DNA of 64,000 nucleotides from Candidatus Omnitrophota bacterium (GTDB lineage: Bacteria; Omnitrophota; Gorgyraeia; Gygaellales; JAHJCI01). The notes under the pieces are model-generated. The model saw nothing but the letters and a program-made list of their open reading frames with translations. It searched no databases and was not told the DNA's origin. Location: the NCBI GenBank assembly GCA_016783355.1, contig JADHWR010000001.1:6072-70071 (forward strand), read 5' to 3'. Every line of letters starts with the position of its first letter. Position 1 is the first letter of the stretch. Of this stretch, positions 1,651 through 63,730 are shown piece by piece. The translations under genes and the position numbers were made by a program.

Positions 1651-3729
1651 TTATCCAGAAACCTCTGTTTTTCTTCCAATAATCTTCTCTGCTATATATG
1701 AAGGCACCTGCGCATAATGCGAGGGCTCCATTGTATAAGAACCGCGACCTGTCGTCAAGGATCTTAGTGTGGTTGCGTAGTCAAAGATCTCTGCCAGAGG
1801 AGTAAAAACGTTAATTATTCTCAAATTCTTCCGTTGATGAAGAGCATTGATTCTCGCTCGCCGACTATTCAAATCTCCAATTACCACACCCATAGATTCC
1901 TCAGGAACAACAATCTCCATATCCATAATCGGTTCTAAGAGTATAGGCCCTGCCTTCTTTATTCCGTCACAAAAGGCAAGACTTGCTGCCATTTGAAAAG
2001 CTAAGTCAGAAGAATCCACCTCATGAGAAGAGCCATCCATTAATGTCACGACCACATCTATCACCGGGAAACCTGCAAGTGCTCCGCTTTTCGCTGCAGA
2101 CATTATTCCTTCTTTGACTGAAGAAATAAACTCCCGCGGTATTGCTCCACCCTTCATTTTATTAACAAAACTCAATCCCGCTCCCGGGGTCTCTTGCGGC
2201 TCCATTTCTATCACCACATGGCCATACTGGCCCCGACCGCCGGTTTGCTGAATAAACTTACCAGTAGAGACCACCTTTTTCGTAATTGTCTCCCGATAAG
2301 AAACAAAGGGCCGGCCCATCCTGGTTTCAACATTAAACTCGCGCAATAACCGCTCAGCCATAATCTCTAAGTGAAGTTGACCCATTCCTGAAATTAGTGT
2401 CTGGCCAGTATCTTCATTGTGAGTTAATATGAAGGTTGGGTCTTCGTCTTGTAATTTTCGTAAAACCAAACCTAATTTATCCTGTTCATCCTTTTTTACG
2501 GGCTCTATACTCATCGATATAACCGGTTGAGGAAAACGAATCTTCTCCAAAAGAATCGGTGCCTCTTTTTCACAAAGGCTATTTCCTGTTCGTGTCTCCT
2601 TTAAGCCGACTAATACACCAATGTCTCCCGCCTGCAACTCCTCTACAACCTCCTGGCGATTGGCATGCATACGAACAATCTTGCTTACCCTTTCCTTTGT
2701 TCTTTGCGTAGCATTATAAATATAGGAACCAGTAGATACTCTTCCAGAATAGACGCGCACAAAGTGTAATTTTCCGACATAAGAATCAATCATTACCTTA
2801 AAACACAAAGCGCAAAAAGGTGCATCAGTCGAGGCCACCCTCTCTTCATAATCATCAGTCCGAGGCTGTATTCCTTTTACTGGCGGGACCTCTAATGGAG
2901 AAGGAAGATACTCGCAGATTGCATTTAACAAAGGTGCTATCCCTTTATTTTGTAGAGAGGAACCGCAGAGGACCGGCACAAATTTATTTTTAACTATTGT
3001 ACGCCGCAACGCTTTCTTAATCTCATCCTTTTTTATAGGTTTATTATGAATAAATTTATCCATAATTATATCGTCTGCTTCTGCCAAATGCTCAATAAGA
3101 ATTGTGTGGTACCGATTGGCCTCTTCTCTTATATCTTGAGGAATAGGCTGCTGTTTTTCTTCTTTACTCGATTCATCTCCATAGACAATCAATTTCTCTT
3201 CCAATAAATCAATGATGCCTTTAAATTCATTCTCCTTGCCATAAGGCAACTGAATGGGGGCTATATTCGCTCCTAACCTGCTCTGCATCTGTTTAATCAC
3301 AGCAAAAAAATCTGCCCCGGTTCTGTCCATCTTATTGACAAAGGCAATACGTGCAACTTCATATTTATCTGCCTGGCGCCAGACAGTCTCTGATTGCGGC
3401 TCAACTCCGCCCACGGCACAAAAAACAACCACACATCCATCAAGAATCTTTAAAGACCTTTCCACTTCAGCAGTAAAATCAACATGTCCGGGTGTATCAA
3501 TAATGTTTATCCGATGATTAACCCATTGACAAGTCGTTGCCGCAGCAGTAATCGTAATACCCCGTTCCTGTTCTTGCTCCATCCAATCCATTACTGCTGT
3601 ACCCTCATTAACCTCTCCTAACTTATAAGTCCTTCCTGTAATATACAGAATACGCTCTGTAGTTGTTGTCTTGCCTGCGTCGATGTGGGCAATCAGACCA
3701 ATATTGCGAATATTCTTTAGTTTATGCAT
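1651..3729 (-). CDS. fusA: Elongation factor G
   Basis: A 692 aa ORF with [12 protein letters not shown] and DTPGHVDF GTPase motifs, sitting between rpsG and tuf. Confidence 0.97.
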
Positions 3730-3733
3730 TTAT

Positions 3734-4204
3734 TTACCATTTAAAATGGGCAAATGCCCGATTTGCCTCAGCCATCTTATGCAAATCGTCTCGCTTTTTA
3801 ATCACTGCCCCTTCTCCCCGGAAACTTGCTACTATTTCATCAGCCAGCTTCTCTTGCATTGACTTTCCCTTTCTTCCCCGCGCAATATTTCTCATCCAAC
3901 GCAAGGCTAAAACAATACCCCTCTCCCTCCTTACCTCTGTGGGTACCTGGTAAGTAGCGCCTCCAATGCGACGAGACTTAACTTCTAATCGTGGACGAGT
4001 ATTATCTAAGACCTTAGAAAAAATCTTTAAAGCATCTGATTCGCCAAGGCGCTCTTTTGCCAACTCAAAGGCACCATAGACAATACGTTGGGCAGTGGAT
4101 TTTTTGCCATCAAGCATAACCATATTGATAAATTTACTTACTACCTTATTCTTGAACCTTGGGTCTAATTGAATTTTCTTCTCTGGTACTCTTCGCCTTC
4201 TCAT
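3734..4204 (-). CDS. rpsG: 30S ribosomal protein S7
   Basis: A 156 aa ORF with S7 family sequence (..[10 protein letters not shown]..) following rpsL. Confidence 0.95.
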
Positions 4205-4572
4205 TTCGGCCTCTTTGCCCCATACTTGGAGCGTGACCTCATCCTCTTCTCCACCCCTGCTGTATCTGATGTCCCACGAATAATATGATAGCGCACGCCG
4301 GGTAAATCCTTAACCCGGCCGCCTCTAATCAAAACAATAGAATGTTCTTGTAAATTATGACCCTCGCCAGGTATATATGCCGTAATCTCCATGCCTGAAG
4401 TTAACCGCACACGTGCAATTTTGCGCAAAGCAGAATTTGGCTTTTTGGGAGTCATTGTACGTACCTGCACACATACACCCCGCCTTTGCGGACATCGGCC
4501 CAATGCGGGGGATTTGGTTTTTTTCGTCTTTCTCTTCCTTCCCAATCTGATTAGCTGTACAATTGTAGGCAT
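4201..4572 (-). CDS. rpsL: 30S ribosomal protein S12
   Basis: A 123 aa ORF reading MPTIVQLIR...[10 protein letters not shown], the canonical S12 sequence. Confidence 0.96.
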
Positions 4573-4579
4573 AATTTTA

Positions 4580-7500
4580 CTAAGTTACCTTTTCCATCTG
4601 CGCCTCTCGATGTGCAATAAAGCCGGTTCCTGCAGGAATTAAATGTCCAACAATCACATTTTCCTTCAATCCATATAAAACATCCCGTGCACCACGAGAA
4701 GCAGCATCGGTCAAAACCCGTGTTGTCTCCTGGAAGCTTGCTGCAGAAATAAAGCTATCTGTGCTCAATGATGCCCTGGTAATACCTTGCAACTGTGGTG
4801 TGGCTGAAGCAGGAGTGCCGCCCTTTTTCATCACACGCTCATTCTCGGTTTTAAATCTCAATTTATCCACTAATTCTCCAGGTAAAAATTCTGTATCTCC
4901 AGAGTCTTCTATACGCACTTTCTTCAGAATCTGTCGAATAATCAATTCAACGTGCTTATCACTAATCTGCACCCCTTGTAAACGATAGACTTCCTGAATC
5001 TCATTCAAAAGATACTCTGCAAGTCTTTTGTCTCCACAAATACGCAAGATTTCCTGAAGCACAACTGGTCCATCTGTAAGCTGGTCGCCGGCGCTGACGC
5101 GGTCCCCTTTATAAACGTTGGGGTGCTTACCATGGGGCATAATATACTCACGCTCCATGCCTGTCGGTGAACGGACAATAATTATTCGTTCGCCTTTCTT
5201 GCCTTCTCCAAATTCTACAAATCCATCAATCTCACTAATTATTGCCGGATTCTTTGGTCGGCGTATCTCAAATAATTCGGCAACGCGCGGCAGACCTCCT
5301 GTAATATCATGGGTTTTGGCAATGATGCGTGGGGTCTTCGCTAAACAGGCTCCTGCATTAATCTGCTCGGTATCCTTAACTAAAACATGGGCGCCTACGG
5401 GGAGCGGATAAAGACTGAGCACATCTTCTTTCTCATCTAAAATAACAATCTGAGGATGATATTCTTGTTTATGCTCCATCACTACTCGCTCAGTAACCTT
5501 GGTTACAGGATTAAACTCATCCTCAATACTAACTCCTGGAATTAAATCCTCAAATCTAACCCGGCCAGCTACTTCTGTCAAAATCGGAGAGTTATAAGGA
5601 TCCCAATGGACAAAAGCCATTCCCTTCTCAGTCAAAGTCTTATCAGCAAAAGCAACCAGCCCTCCATAGGGTACGGTATAACGTTCAAGTTCCCGGCCTT
5701 CCTGATCATTAATACTAATTACGCCATTACGATTAAGCACAAGAAATTCTTTGCCCACCCTTACTATTTTTAAGTTATGGTAGGTTAATATGCCTTTGTT
5801 TCTTGATTTTATCGAAGAGCGCTCAATCACACGAGAAGCTGTTCCGCCAATATGAAATGTGCGCATAGTAAGTTGTGTGCCGGGTTCGCCGATACTCTGA
5901 GCAGCAATTATTCCTACTGCCTCGCCTAATTCAACCTGCTTTCCCCGGGCAAGGTCCCGGCCATAACAGGTGGCGCAAATCCCCCTTTCTGCCTCGCAGA
6001 TAAGAACACTGCGTATCCTTATCTTCTCAATACCTAAACGCTCAATAATATCTGCCTTCTCTTCAGTAATCTCTTTGCCTGCCTCAACAATAACCTCATC
6101 AGTAATAATATCAACAATGTTATCGAGGGCAGTCCTTCCCACGATACGCTCGCGAAGAGGTATAACCACCTCATCTCCTTCAATAAGTGCGCTAACTGTA
6201 ATTCCATTAAGTGTACCGCAATCCTTCCTGGTTACAATTATATCCTGAGCAACATCTACCAATCGGCGAGTAAGATATCCTGCATCAGCTGTCTTTAGGG
6301 CTGTATCAGCGAGTCCTTTTCTTGCGCCATGTGTGGAGATAAAATATTCAAGAACGGTTAAACCCTCACGAAAATTTGCTGTAATAGGAGTTTCGATAAT
6401 CTCGCCTGATGGTTTTGCCATCAATCCACGCATTCCGCAAAGCTGCCTCACCTGCAGGCGCGAACCTCTTGCACCAGAATCAGCCATCATAAAGATTGGG
6501 TTAAAGGGTGTCATTTGCGAAAAGAGATAGTCAGTAACCCTATCTGTAGCATGTGTCCAGATATCAACAACACGATTAGATTTTTCTCTCTCTGTAATTA
6601 TGCCGTCTTTATAAAGCGTATCTACTTTGTCAACCTCGTTCTGTGCCTTCTTTATAACCTCTGCTTTTTGTGAGGGAATATGCAAATCCCCAATGGCAAT
6701 CGTGATACCCCCTAAGGTGGCAAATTCAAAGCCTTGTTCTTTTATTTCATCTAACAACTGAATTGTTCGTGCGTGACCAAAGCGTTTGTAGCATTCATCG
6801 ATTATATCGGCAACCAAGAATCTATTTAATTCCCTATTTACAAATCCAAAACCCTCCGGCAGCACTTGATTGAAGATGATTCTTCCCACTGTTGTTGTAA
6901 TTAGCCCTGTTGAGTCTTTAGCCTTTCTCTCATCCAGATCATATACCTTATTGACTTTCGTCTTTATCAATTCATGTAGGTCAATTATCTTATCGTTGTA
7001 CGCAGAGAGTGCCGCCGCAGGCGTGCTAAAGATTAAATCCTTTATCTTGCCGGCAGAGCCTTGCTTGGTAAAATAATTGCAACCCAGAATGATATCCTGT
7101 GTAGGCGATGTAATCGGCCGGCCATTGGCAGGAGAAAACATATTATTAATCGAAAGCATTAAAAGCTTTGCCTCCATCTGTGATTCCAACGACAGGGGGA
7201 CATGCACAGCCATCTGGTCACCATCAAAATCAGCATTAAAAGCGGCACATACCAAGGGATGGATCTTGATTGCCTTGCCCTCAATAAGTCTTGGTTGAAA
7301 TGCCTGCATACTTAAACGATGCAAGGTTGGTGCGCGATTCAAAAGCACGGGATGGTCACTTACAACTTCCTCGAGAATATCCCAAACCTCAACCTTTCCC
7401 CGCTCAACCATTCGGCGTGCCCCCTTAATTGTATGAACAAAGCCTTTCTGGCATAACCTCTTAATAATAAATGGCTCAAATAACTCAACCGCCATCTGCT

Positions 7501-10500
7501 TGGGAAGACCGCACTCTTGCATTTTCAGTTTTGGCTCAACAACAATTACCGAACGACCAGAGTAATCTACACGTTTACCTAAAAGATTCTGCCTGAAACG
7601 ACCCTGCTTTCCTTTAAGCATATCCGCAAGGGATTTTAGGGGTCGATTATTCGCCGTCAAGACTGCGCGGCCATGTCTTCCGTTATCAAAAAGCGCATCC
7701 ACTGCCTCTTGAAGCATTCTTTTTTCATTGCGAATAATAATATCCGGAGAATTTAACTCAATCAGTTTTTTTAGACGGTTGTTGCGATTAATCACCTGAC
7801 GATATAAATCATTCAAATCAGAAGTAGCAAATCTACCGCCATCTAAAGGAACCAGAGGCCTTAGGTCTGGCGGTATAACAGGAAGAACCTCCAAAACCAT
7901 CCATTCAGGCTTGTTGCCTGACTTTTTATAATCCTCGACAAACTTAAGATTTTTTAATAACTTTCGACGAGAAAGATTATCTTTAGACTGAGCGAGGGTT
8001 TTTTTCATTCTGGCAATCAGCTCATCTAAATCTGCTTCCTTCAATAAATCCTGAATTGCCCCTGCTCCAATTTTAGAGACAAAACCTTTATGTTTTTGTC
8101 GTGCTTGTGTATTTTCCTCTTCTGGAAGAAGTTGGCCCCTTTTATACGGCGAATCGCCTGGCTCGCTCACAACGTATGCCTCATAATAAATTATCTTTTC
8201 CAACTCACGCAGCCCCAAACCCAATATGGCCGAAAGCCTGCCGGAGACAACCTTAAAAAACCAGACATGTGTTACGGGTGCGGCTAATTCTATCTGTCCC
8301 ATGCGCTGACGGCGCACCATCGAATGCGCCACGGTTACGCCGCAACGGTCACAGGTAATTCCCTTAAACTTTATACCCTTATATTTGCCGCAGTGACACT
8401 CCCAGTCCTTCGCTGGCCCAAAAATCCTTTCGCAAAAGAGTCCATCTTTTTCCGGCTTAAGCGTACGATAATTAATTGTTTCTGCCTTTCTCACCTCGCC
8501 GCTTGACCAGCTGCGAATAACCTGTGGCGAGGCGATCTTTATACCTAAACTTTCAAATTGATTTGGGTTCTCCTCCCTTAGCTCCTGCTTTTCTATACGA
8601 ATATCAAGACATAAAGCTTGTAATTCTTTCATCAATACATGAAATGACTCGGGAATTCCGGGAAAAATCCTTTGTTCTCCTTTGACAATTGCCTCGTAAA
8701 TTTTTGTCCGGCCGCTAACATCGTCGCTTTTCACGGTAAGCATCTCTTGTAAAATAAAGGCAGCGCCATAGGCCTCTAAAGCCCAAACCTCCATCTCTCC
8801 TAAGCGCTGACCCCCAAACTGTGCCTTTCCTCCTAAAGGCTGCTGAGTAACTAAAGAATAGGGGCCTATAGAGCGGGCATGAATCTTCTCCTCAACAAGA
8901 TGAATCAACTTCATCATATAAATATATCCCACAGAGATATTTTGGGCAAAGGGCTCGCCTGTATAGCCGTCAAAGAGTGTAATTTTACTATCCTCAGGTA
9001 GCCGTGCTTCTTTAAGCATTTGCCTTATTTCTTCCTCGCTTGCTCCATCAAATACAGGAGAGGCAACTTTTATACCCAGACTATGCGCTGCCCAACCAAG
9101 ATGAGTCTCTAAAATCTGGCCGACATTCATGCGCGAAGGAACGCCTAAAGGATTTAAAACAATCTCGACTGGTTCCCCCGATGGCAAAAAGGGCATATCT
9201 TCTTCTGGTAAAATTCTTGCAACTATCCCCTTATTGCCATGACGGCCGGATAACTTATCTCCCTCTTGAAGCCTGTGCTTTGTAGCAATATAGACGATAA
9301 CCTGCTTAAGAACACCGCTCGGTAATTCATCGCCCCGACGCACTGCTTCAATCTCCTGCTTCATCTGAATATCCAATGCCTTGATCTGTTCTACATAAGG
9401 CTGGTTTATCTGGTTTGTTTCAGGATACGTACTTAAATCTAAGTCTGTTAATTCCTCTCTATCTACTTTTAAAACGTCGCACAGCCGCCTCATTCTTTCT
9501 TTATTAAGGAATTCCCTCTCTTCCTTATAATATTGTTTTATCTCCTTAATTCTTTTCTGCTGGCGCAACTTCTCTTCTTTAGACTTCCTCCCTCGCTCTC
9601 GACGACTAAATTCATCAATATGCACGACGATACCTTCGATACCGGGCGGAACAACTAACGAGGTATCGCGCACATCTTCAGCTTTTTTACCAAATATTGC
9701 GCGCAAGAGTCTCTCTTCCGCAGAAAGCTCTGATTCAGTGGTCGGTGTAACCTTGCCAACAAGAATATCCCCTGGCTCAGCCCAGGCGCCAATGCGCACA
9801 ATACCATTTTCGCCAAGACTAAGCAATGCCTCTTCGCTAACATTAGGAATATCCCGCGTAATCTCCTCGTTGCCTAAGCGCGTCTCTGTGGCTTCGATTT
9901 CCAACTTCTCGATATGAATAGAAGTAAAGGCATCTTCCTTGACTATCTTTTCAGAAATCAAGATTGCATCTTCAAAATTGTATCCTCGCCAGGGCATAAA
10001 GGCCACCAATAGGTTTCTGCCCAAAGCAAGTTCTCCATCTTGGGTTGCTATCCCATCGGCAATGATCTGACCTTCTTCTACAAAATCCCCTAACAAAACC
10101 AGCGGTCTTTGATTTATGCAAGTATCGGCATTGGTGCGCAGGAATTTCTTCAATCGATAAGTCTTTTTTCCAATGATGATTGTGGAGGCATCAACAAAGG
10201 TTACCTTGCCGGCCTCTTCGGCAATCACAACTGCACCAGAATCCTCTGCTATCTTCCTTTCCATCATTGTTCCTACAAGAGGTGCCTGCGGATTAAGCAG
10301 TGGCACTGCTTGACGCTGCATATTGGCTCCCATCAATGCGCGATTGGCATCATCGTGCTCTAAAAAAGGAATTAAGGAAGCGGATATCGAAATCAATTGC
10401 TTACAAGACACATCCATAAACTCCACCTTTTTGGCCGCAAGCTTGGGAAAATCAGCTTTAAAACGACAAGATACATCCTTCTCTAAAAGATGACCCCCCT

Positions 10501-11980
10501 TATCCAAGGCAGCATTAGCCTGCGCAATCACCTTTTGCTCATCCAGATCAGCAGTTAGGTATTCAATCTGCTTGGTTGCTTTTGCGTCTTTTACTTTGCG
10601 ATAAGGTGTCTCTAATAAACCGAGGGGGTTAATCCGGGCATATGTAGTCAAGGAAGTAATCAAGCCGATGTTTGGACCCTCGGGGGTTTCTATGGGACAG
10701 AGACGGCCATAATGTGAAGAATGTATATCTCTTACCTCAAAACTGGCGCGCTCGCGCGAGAGGCCACCCGGACCCAAAGCACTCAGCCGGCGTTTATGGG
10801 TTAACTCCGCTAATGGATTTACCTGATCCATAAACTGCGAGAGTTGACCGCGTGTAAAAAAATCATGGATTTGATTGGAAAAAATTTTGAAATTTATGAG
10901 ATGGTAAATGGTTAAGTCTTCTGTCTCGCCCATCAATGTCAATCTTTCTCGAATATTACGTTCAATTCGCGCAAGCCCAATGCGCACCTGATTCTGAGCT
11001 AATTCTGCTACAGTACGTACCCGCCGATTACCCAAATGGTCGATATCATCAATCTTTCCTTTTCCCTCTTTTAAACCGATAAGATAGTTAATAACCTTAA
11101 TTACTGTTTCGTAATCAAGAACTCTTTTATCCAGAGGGGTATCCATTCCTAATTTGCGGTTGAGGATAAATCTGCCGCAGCGACTGAGGTCATACCGGCG
11201 CACATCAAAAAATAAGCGGTAAAATAACTCGGCTGCTGCCTCGGGCGTAACCGGCTCACCCGGCCGCATCTTACGGAAAAAGTCTAATAGAGCTTCTTCT
11301 TTACTCTTTGTGTAATCCCTTTGCAGTGTATTGTTAATTACTGTATTATCTTTTCCAAAAAAACTTTGAATTTCTTCATCAGAGCTTAAACCTAATATAC
11401 GCAGGATCTGTGTGACGGGAAATGTCCGTCGACGATCAATAACTGCCAATATGGCTTCTGAAATATCATATTTAAATTCCAACCATGTTCCCCGATAAGG
11501 AATAATCCTTCCATAAAAAATGCGCTTTCCTGTTATATGCGTTTCCTCTTCAAAAGAAACACCGGGAGAACGATGAAGTTGAAAGATGACAACACGCTCA
11601 TCGCCATTAATAATAAAAGAGGCAGTAGGGGTCATCAAAGGAACCTCACCAAAAAACACATCCTGTTCTAATGTCCTGCTGGCAGAGATAAATCTAAATC
11701 TTACCCATAGTGGTGCAGCATAAGTCATTCCTCTTGTTTTACATTCCTCAATATCATATTTTGGATTACCCAATACATAATTGATAAACTCAAGCCGTAT
11801 GTGCCGGCTCGGTGTTTCAATAGGAAAGAAATTAAGAAACTCTTCCTGTAATCCTGAGCATCGCCTCTCTGAAAAAGGAACATCTTTTTGCAAAAAATCC
11901 TTATAGGCCTTGAGCTGATGCCTCAGAAGATTGGGTACTGAATATACTTCCTTTAGTTTTGCAAAACTCTTTCTCTTCAA
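4580..11980 (-). CDS. rpoBC: DNA-directed RNA polymerase beta-beta' fusion (RpoB-RpoC in one continuous 2466-codon ORF)
   Basis: The N-terminal ~1150 aa are RpoB and end ...[20 protein letters not shown]. The RpoC N-terminus follows with no intervening stop (...[41 protein letters not shown]...), and the ORF ends with the RpoC C-terminus. Confidence 0.9.
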
Positions 11981-11993
11981 CTTATGTCCTCAC

Positions 11994-63116: not shown

Positions 63117-63189
63117 AGCGGGAGACGGGCTTCGAACCCGCGACATTCACGTTGGCAACGTGATGCTCTACCAACTGAGCTACTCCCGC
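63117..63189 (-). tRNA. tRNA-Gly (anticodon GCC)
   Basis: Cloverleaf GCGGGAGTAGCTCAGTTGGTAGAGCATCACGTTGCCAACGTGAATGTCGCGGGTTCGAAGCCCGTCTCCCGCT. Confidence 0.85.
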
Positions 63190-63216: not shown

Positions 63217-63302
63217 TGCCGCGGGAGAGACTCGAACTCTCAAGTCTTTGTCAGACATTAGGTCCTAAGCCTAACGCGTATACCAAATTCCGCCACCGCG
63301 GC
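63217..63302 (-). tRNA. tRNA-Leu (anticodon TAG), a class II tRNA with a long variable arm
   Basis: An 86 nt sequence, GCCGCGGTGGCGGAATTTGGTATACGCGTTAGGCTTAGGACCTAA...GAGTTCGAGTCTCTCCCGCGGCA, with anticodon loop CTTAGGA. Confidence 0.8.
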
Positions 63303-63331: not shown

Positions 63332-63730
63332 TGAGCCACCCGCGACTCGAACGCGGCACACCCGCCTTAAACATTTTTGTTAACTGTATGTCGCCATACA
63401 GATCAGACTATCCCATCCCCCTCACGCTTATCCTTAAAAAAGAAAGCGATGGGGGTCTCGATTATAGTCGTTGAACCTTCCCAGTACTTATTTGCTAAGA
63501 TAATTTCTGATTCAAATAAATGCCGGGCTTGGCTGCAGATTGTCTGCATTTAAGAATTTTTACCCCCGCCACAATACTTTGGCGGGTCGCCAATGCTTTG
63601 TGGCGACAGACATAAAGGGTATCTTAAAATACTCAGACTTTCCCGCAATTTACGAGATTCTCACTATTGATTTCTCAATAATGGCCCCTTTTTCGCGAGG
63701 GCGGTGCTCTACCAGATGAGCTAGTGGCCC
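63332..63730 (-). tRNA. Split tRNA gene (73 nt mature, anticodon inferred UUU, so Lys) interrupted in the anticodon loop by a 326 nt group I intron
   Basis: Exon 1 (63698-63730) is GGGCCACTAGCTCATCTGGTAGAGCACCGCCCT. Exon 2 (63332-63371) is TTTAAGGCGGGTGTGCCGCGTTCGAGTCGCGGGTGGCTCA. The two halves form a complete cloverleaf with a GGGCCAC/GTGGCTC acceptor and a CCGCC/GGCGG anticodon stem. Confidence 0.7.
63372..63697 (-). ncRNA. Group I intron within the tRNA-Lys(UUU) anticodon loop
   Basis: The 5' exon ends in U and the intron ends in G. Intron segments resemble the Tetrahymena P4 (AAAUUGCGGGAAAG), P6 (GCAGCCAAG) and P7 (ACGACUAUAAUCG...GAUAGUCUGAUC) regions. Its P5 region contains a copy of the rimP-nusA double-hairpin repeat. 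Confidence 0.7.

Follow-up and report, generated by a model that had tools for sequence, protein, structure and literature searches.

A probable single-polypeptide beta-beta-prime subunit of RNA polymerase in Candidatus Omnitrophota, derived from coupled split genes

The analysed window, by which we mean the whole 64,000-nt stretch of DNA from a Candidatus Omnitrophota bacterium (contig JADHWR010000001.1), carries on its minus strand a single open reading frame for both large subunits of RNA polymerase (4580..11980). This fused rpoB-rpoC ORF consists of 2466 codons and a stop, starts with TTG, and has a product with a predicted mass of 278.0 kDa. The RpoB (beta) part, as defined by the Pfam domains Rpb2_1 to Rpb2_7 and by alignment with beta chains, corresponds to aa 1-1131 (8588..11980, minus strand) and ends with ...LCLDIRIEK, while the RpoC (beta-prime) part, as defined by Rpb1_1 to Rpb1_5 and alignment with beta-prime chains, corresponds to aa 1142-2466 (4583..8557, minus strand). 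The data showed the full set of RpoB domains (Rpb2_1, 2, 3, 45, 6 and 7) in aa 17-1131, and the full set of RpoC domains within aa 1140-2458, with Rpb1_1 to Rpb1_5 in aa 1140-2407. The NCBIfam models placed the ORF both in TIGR02013 (rpoB; 1661 bits versus the curated cutoff of 801) and in TIGR02386 (rpoC; 1742 bits versus 963.5). The NADFDGD catalytic motif (aa 1582) and the zinc-binding cysteines in the N-terminal region of the RpoC part (aa 1195-1214) are intact. The initial annotation had described rpoB and rpoC as one ORF of 2466 codons with a junction at 8480-8640, and the ORF listing, the translation, Pfam and NCBIfam all agree with this description, including its coordinates, with the ORF on the minus strand.

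The order of genes in the operon is canonical (nusG-rplK-rplA-rplJ-rplL-rpoBC-rpsL-rpsG-fusA-tuf). The fused gene is directly preceded by rplL (L7/L12; 11994..12383, minus strand) and directly followed by rpsL (S12; 4201..4572, minus strand). The rplL stop codon and the TTG start of rpoBC are separated by a 13-nt spacer (11981-11993), which contains a GAGGA ribosome-binding site. The corresponding interval between rplL and rpoB in E. coli has a long leader with an attenuator, for which this short spacer therefore leaves no room.

In another part of the window, a group I intron (Rfam RF00028, 88 bits) was detected at 63384-63707 on the minus strand, flanked by the genes of tRNA-Leu(tag) (63217-63302) and tRNA-Gly (63117-63189). 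When the region ~63377-63705 was removed in silico, using approximate splice sites, ARAGORN recognised a tRNA-Leu(UAA) gene spanning the joined ends. In this Omnitrophota contig the anticodon loop of tRNA-Leu(UAA) thus seems to be split by the intron, an arrangement known from cyanobacteria and plastids.

The region joining the two parts of the fused ORF was analyzed at the level of codons and by comparison with separate subunits. Stop codons are abundant in both other reading frames of the junction. The only start-like codons that are in frame in aa 1095-1215 are TTG1116 and ATG1117, which are located within the RpoB C-terminal domain, and GTG1163, which is located within conserved RpoC sequence; from Met1117 to GTG1163 the frame has no further ATG, GTG or TTG. 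Hence, as would be expected of a natural beta-beta-prime fusion, the beta-prime part has no independent translation start. In the alignment with solved chains the RpoB part reaches the last residues of beta, for example residues 1206-1341 of the 1342 in E. coli beta, while the RpoC part begins at beta-prime residue 5-16, leaving ~8 residues (aa 1132-1139) unaligned between them. The comparison with split relatives defined a linker of 10 residues (aa 1132-1141; 8558..8587, minus strand). It had been claimed from the initial inspection that the junction has no stop, no RpoC start methionine and no measurable linker; the scan of in-frame codons confirmed the first two points, but the last did not hold in either comparison. 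The linker is best read as the former RpoB tail followed by the former RpoC leader. There was no fused chain in the best 60 of 124 matches among solved structures, and an AlphaFold2 model of aa 1000-1480, built with 28 fused homologues, had a mean pLDDT of 57, which is too poor to define the linker geometry.

The uninterrupted ORF was reproducible in independent sequence data. A full-length search returned a 2466-aa protein from another assembly (P0121), which was listed as 100% identical and has five substitutions relative to the window; two further members of its 90% cluster (P0242 and P0243) are also 2466 aa long. Three ENA assemblies of the same species contain the 2466-aa ORF with 2-5 amino-acid differences from the window, the start residue aside. 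The contig of P0121 (L081, ERZ24794679) is 99.918% identical to the window at the DNA level; the 21,980 aligned nt contain 18 mismatches and no gap.

In public annotation this fusion is hidden, because the ORF has been cut to fit the beta-prime model. The fourth member of the cluster, MBL7080964.1 (P0241), is a 1350-aa protein annotated as beta-prime, which is 100% identical to aa 1117-2466 of the window. Its start is the internal in-frame ATG of Met1117, in the RpoB C-terminal domain (8630..8632, minus strand), upstream of which no Shine-Dalgarno-like sequence was found. The same trimming was observed in the P0123 cluster, where a 1362-aa call stands beside full-length entries of 2486 aa, and in the P0147 cluster, where a 1417-aa call stands beside full-length entries of ~2620 aa. 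Trimmed beta-prime calls were noticed in other Omnitrophota and in unclassified 'bacterium' MAGs (MCG2706645.1, 1362 aa; MBU0479343.1, 1417 aa). RpoB may be absent as a protein from the records in which beta-prime is trimmed, and such trimmed or fused calls could affect marker-gene phylogenomics and estimates of completeness that expect separate rpoB and rpoC.

Two explanations that would deny the existence of a single chain were weighed against these data. One is that the genome itself has separate overlapping genes, whose frames were joined by a one-base error of sequencing or assembly. A single base does separate the close relatives from the fused frame, and many 'fused' database entries found with a junction query are clearly artefactual, with out-of-frame, arginine-rich spacers and the RpoC methionine retained. 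However, the ORF is common to four independent assemblies, which are distinguished by SNPs and differ by no indel; the longest homopolymer at the junction is GGG; and the ancestral ATG is now AGG, with no alternative start for RpoC, so that restoring the upstream stop would leave RpoC untranslatable. As the four assemblies agree, a missing base, the concern raised in the initial annotation, can be dismissed to the extent that assemblies allow, and an artefact is extremely improbable. The other explanation accepts the ORF, and supposes that RpoC is made as a separate protein, either because translation starts internally or because a protease cuts the linker. This could be favored by the Shine-Dalgarno-like string GGGAGGAG in the linker (window ~8570-8577), and by the predicted poor order of the linker (pLDDT ~50). 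Yet no in-frame ATG, GTG or TTG can be reached from this string, the nearest TTG being out of frame and followed by a stop three codons later, and GGAGG occurs nine times in the rpoBC ORF, which makes its single copy in the linker unremarkable; for these reasons the string was rejected as an internal ribosome-binding site. The large subunits are tethered in the native enzyme of Helicobacter, according to the title of Zakharova et al. 1998 as cited in PMC9696931, which also speaks against separate proteins. Two proteins from one ORF are hence quite improbable. We conclude that the ORF in the window very probably encodes a real, functional single-polypeptide beta-beta-prime subunit in Candidatus Omnitrophota, which would have evolved from coupled split genes, and that the chain presumably stays uncleaved.

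The nearest relatives of the fused gene are mostly split. A search with the N-terminal half of RpoC returned dozens of proteins labelled Omnitrophota that are 70-78% identical to the window. These proteins carry the same unusual KAETINYRT motif as the window, yet they have a true N-terminus such as MEEIVSFDSISIKIASPQ. Inspection of the DNA verified a TAATG stop/start overlap in three split relatives (L089, L090 and L092) and an ATGA overlap in another (L091), and in all four rpoB ends with EK-x-K and the stop codon. Their RpoB identity to the window is 69-70%, which is comparable to the 69-72% of the fused relatives P0122-P0124, the nearest of which, P0122, is 72% identical and has the same gene order as the window. 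In one of these split relatives (L089) rpoC was called as two ORFs, 311-2767 and 2772-4358 (818 and 528 aa), which are 4 nt apart, and this could be either a real split of beta-prime or a sequencing error.

When metagenomes were scanned with a profile specific to the subgroup, 80 loci were obtained, 73 of them classifiable and seven unclassifiable. The genes are clearly split in 63 loci, and split in frame or by longer spacers in nine more, so that ~72 of the 73 classifiable loci are split; the only fused locus in this sample of the subgroup is L158, which is of the P0124 type. A 1-nt overlap was present in 37 of the 63 loci with measured spacing, and the junction spacing across the subgroup ranges from -14 to ~+60 nt. 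Relatives of the P0442 type are those placed closest to the window in the tree; in two such loci (L157 and L163, at ~1400-1500) rpoB and rpoC share one frame, with a ~60-nt spacer that includes a second stop between them. In L130 (~1300-1500), the 210 nt before rpoC (MEEIVSFDS...) have no similarity to RpoB in any frame, and rpoB and rpoC may be non-adjacent there.

The comparison of the junction DNA suggests how the two genes were joined. The window reads GAA AAG CAG GAG CTA AGG GAG GAG (E K Q E L R E E), while the pattern of split relatives is E K x K stop / Met E E x x x F D S. The codons CTA AGG (8576..8581, minus strand; Leu1134 at 8579-8581 and Arg1135 at 8576-8578) stand exactly where these relatives have the rpoB stop and the rpoC ATG. 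Examples of the two types of split junction are GAG AAG GCA AAA TAATG GAA GAG (L089, overlap type) and GCT AAA TAA ATG GAA GAA (L126, in-frame type). The interval from the EK to the EE codons is 12 nt in the window versus 11 nt in the overlap-type relatives, and the string C-TAAGG of the window is similar to the ancestral TAATG overlap. With the EK and EE codons as anchors, the chance of such a TAAGG relic is estimated at ~0.01, to which we assign only moderate weight.

These data are consistent with ancestors in which rpoB and rpoC were separate and translationally coupled, through TAATG as in most relatives, or through ATGA or genes abutting in frame as in the others. In the lineage of the window the stop and the start would have been turned into the sense codons CTA (Leu1134) and AGG (Arg1135). 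This could have occurred through a +1 insertion just upstream of TAATG together with ATG to AGG, or from an in-frame TAA-ATG junction through TAA to TTA to CTA together with ATG to AGG. Both routes fit the junction and either could have been taken; the in-frame route would make the TAA string in the window coincidental. As a result RpoC would no longer be translated alone, and one ribosome would make both subunits as a 278-kDa chain, which would assemble with alpha2 and omega like the tethered enzymes of Helicobacter and those engineered in E. coli and M. bovis.

The junctions of other fused genes show different lesions. In L158 the fused sequence AAG GTA AAA GAG GAA, when compared with AAG GTA AAA TAATG GAT GAA in the split loci L145 and L148, lacks TAATG, which has been deleted. 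A 90%-identity cluster labelled Verrucomicrobiia contains both a fused member (L087, AAG CAA TTT ACG AGT) and a split one (L088, AAG TAA TTT ATG AGC), and in a relative of the more distant fused proteins (L086) the two genes overlap as ATGA within an A-rich stretch. The linker of P0122, the sister fused lineage, looks unrelated to that of the window, and the two may or may not stem from one event. A TAAG string in the P0122 junction was considered as a possible TAA relic, but it is in the wrong phase and was treated as a coincidence. Since the small lesions differ across lineages, the junction is a small mutational target that has been hit repeatedly, and, P0122 aside, the other fusions arose independently of that in the window as far as sequence can tell.

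Fused rpoBC genes have been named for Helicobacteraceae, Wolinella and Wolbachia in two papers (PMC7483510, PMC9696931), and no report of the fusion in Omnitrophota or NPL-UPA2 was found in the searchable literature. In public sequence data (ENA, JGI, NCBI and Logan) we found 28 further full-length fused proteins, which are 53-72% identical to the window. Their linkers differ in sequence and length, and none of them retains the RpoC methionine. They include candidate division NPL-UPA2 Unc8, in three NCBI assemblies, and bins labelled Verrucomicrobiia. An exhaustive search of 50%-identity representatives gave at least 24 divergent full-length fused proteins of 1948-2859 aa, a count that may be inflated, since cluster representatives are possibly biased to long sequences; the gap between the RpoB C-terminus and the RpoC N-terminus in these proteins is 3-84 residues. 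The initial annotation had given Helicobacter and Wolbachia as the known cases, which matches the literature, while public data hold many divergent fused proteins beyond them. In a background sample of 80 diverse bacterial loci, one of the 60 that could be scored was fused, and it belongs to a Paceibacterota MAG; the underlying contig scan was dominated by the universal peptide EMEVWALE, returned no close relative of the window, and its scoring motif missed the Helicobacter locus. The top matches of a junction-spanning protein search were singleton gene calls of 300-500 aa running through frameshifted or stop-containing spacers, and were rejected as evidence of fusion. Most of the short database entries that span a junction result from faulty gene calling, and searches with a junction query yield many artefactual 'fusions'.

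The fusion in the window resembles the known fused systems in its arrangement. The RpoBC of Helicobacter and Wolinella (NF007172, PRK09603) has, like the window, the beta C-terminus joined to the beta-prime N-terminus in the same operon, and that of Wolbachia (NF011417, PRK14844) is likewise a natural single-chain beta/beta-prime. However, the window scored 2688 bits against the cutoff of 5372 for NF007172, and 2607 bits against the cutoff of 4632 for NF011417, both below the respective cutoff, and its fusion therefore arose independently. The window protein is also shorter than the Helicobacter RpoBC (2466 aa versus a model of 2890 positions), has a different linker, and comes from Omnitrophota rather than Campylobacterota. 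In the campylobacters, which are relatives of Helicobacter, rpoB overlaps rpoC, as in the precursor state seen here, according to the title of Zakharova et al. 1999 given in PMC7483510 and PMC9696931. The Omnitrophota clusters P0123 and P0124 and the locus L158 share with the window the phylum, the subgroup (~70-77% identity), the operon and a similar linker length, but their junction is EK-VK-EE, with TAATG cleanly lost, while that of the window is EK-QE-LR-EE, and they stand apart from it in the tree. The same topology and a linker of ~10 residues are found in the engineered beta-beta-prime of E. coli and in that of M. bovis, whose 10-aa linker is LARHVGGSGA (PMC3993855). Such engineered tethers are artificial and compatible with a working enzyme.

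The distribution of fused and split genes bears on the suggestion, made in the initial annotation, that the fusion is a potential lineage marker, and more broadly on whether it is an old synapomorphy of all or much of Omnitrophota. The 28 fused relatives, which include NPL-UPA2 and other Omnitrophota, and a first RpoB tree that gave an almost all-fused clade could be taken to favor this idea. That deep clade was rejected as a sampling bias once the split relatives had been found: a full-length query ranks fused proteins first, because they score on both halves, and equally close relatives are split. The prevalence of split loci in the subgroup also opposes it, as do the overlapping genes of L086 and the mixed fused and split 90%-identity cluster, which occur among the more distant fused proteins. 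In a bootstrapped neighbor-joining tree of the RpoC N-terminal half, the window grouped with P0122 and P0123 with P0124, each with 74% support, while the four fused sequences of the subgroup, whose junction lesions differ, were monophyletic in only 0.5% of replicates. Hence, an ancient fusion shared by a major lineage is very improbable. With relatives mostly split, fused members not monophyletic and fusions present in many unrelated lineages, the fusion does not mark Omnitrophota as a clade; a marker role could stand at a very shallow level only, since relatives at 69-70% RpoB identity are split, and the fusion is unsuitable as a taxonomic marker above that level. The junction stops that were found when related genomes were checked thus count against the marker idea, but do not call into question that the organism studied here has the fusion. 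The fusion is recent, as most close relatives keep two genes with a one-base overlap.

A further question is whether the joining of the genes was favored by selection, for example for a 1:1 stoichiometry or for enzyme stability in small, possibly host-dependent cells. This could be supported by the fact that fusions arose repeatedly. Separation of the subunits in Helicobacter pylori reportedly sensitises cells to urea, which was counted on the same side. On the other hand, the fused form is a small minority in the subgroup (1 of ~73 sampled), the split state is already translationally coupled, and so small a mutational target would by itself lead to recurrence, so that an adaptive origin is unlikely. 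It is similarly unlikely, and a little more so, that the fusions that recur in uncultivated lineages, among them Omnitrophota and NPL-UPA2, were selected with TAATG serving as a toggle between coupled and tethered subunits. The engineered beta-beta-prime with a 10-residue linker gave an active enzyme and supported growth of E. coli, and engineered fusions were phenotypically silent (PMC3993855), which is a further point against adaptation. The change in the window was probably close to neutral and a small step, because the ancestors would already have been translationally coupled, and such a change agrees with the small share of fused members in the subgroup. Omnitrophota, and by extension many uncultivated lineages, would thus join the organisms with tethered large subunits of RNA polymerase, and the mutational intermediates that relatives retain show that such a fusion arises easily from overlapping or abutting genes.
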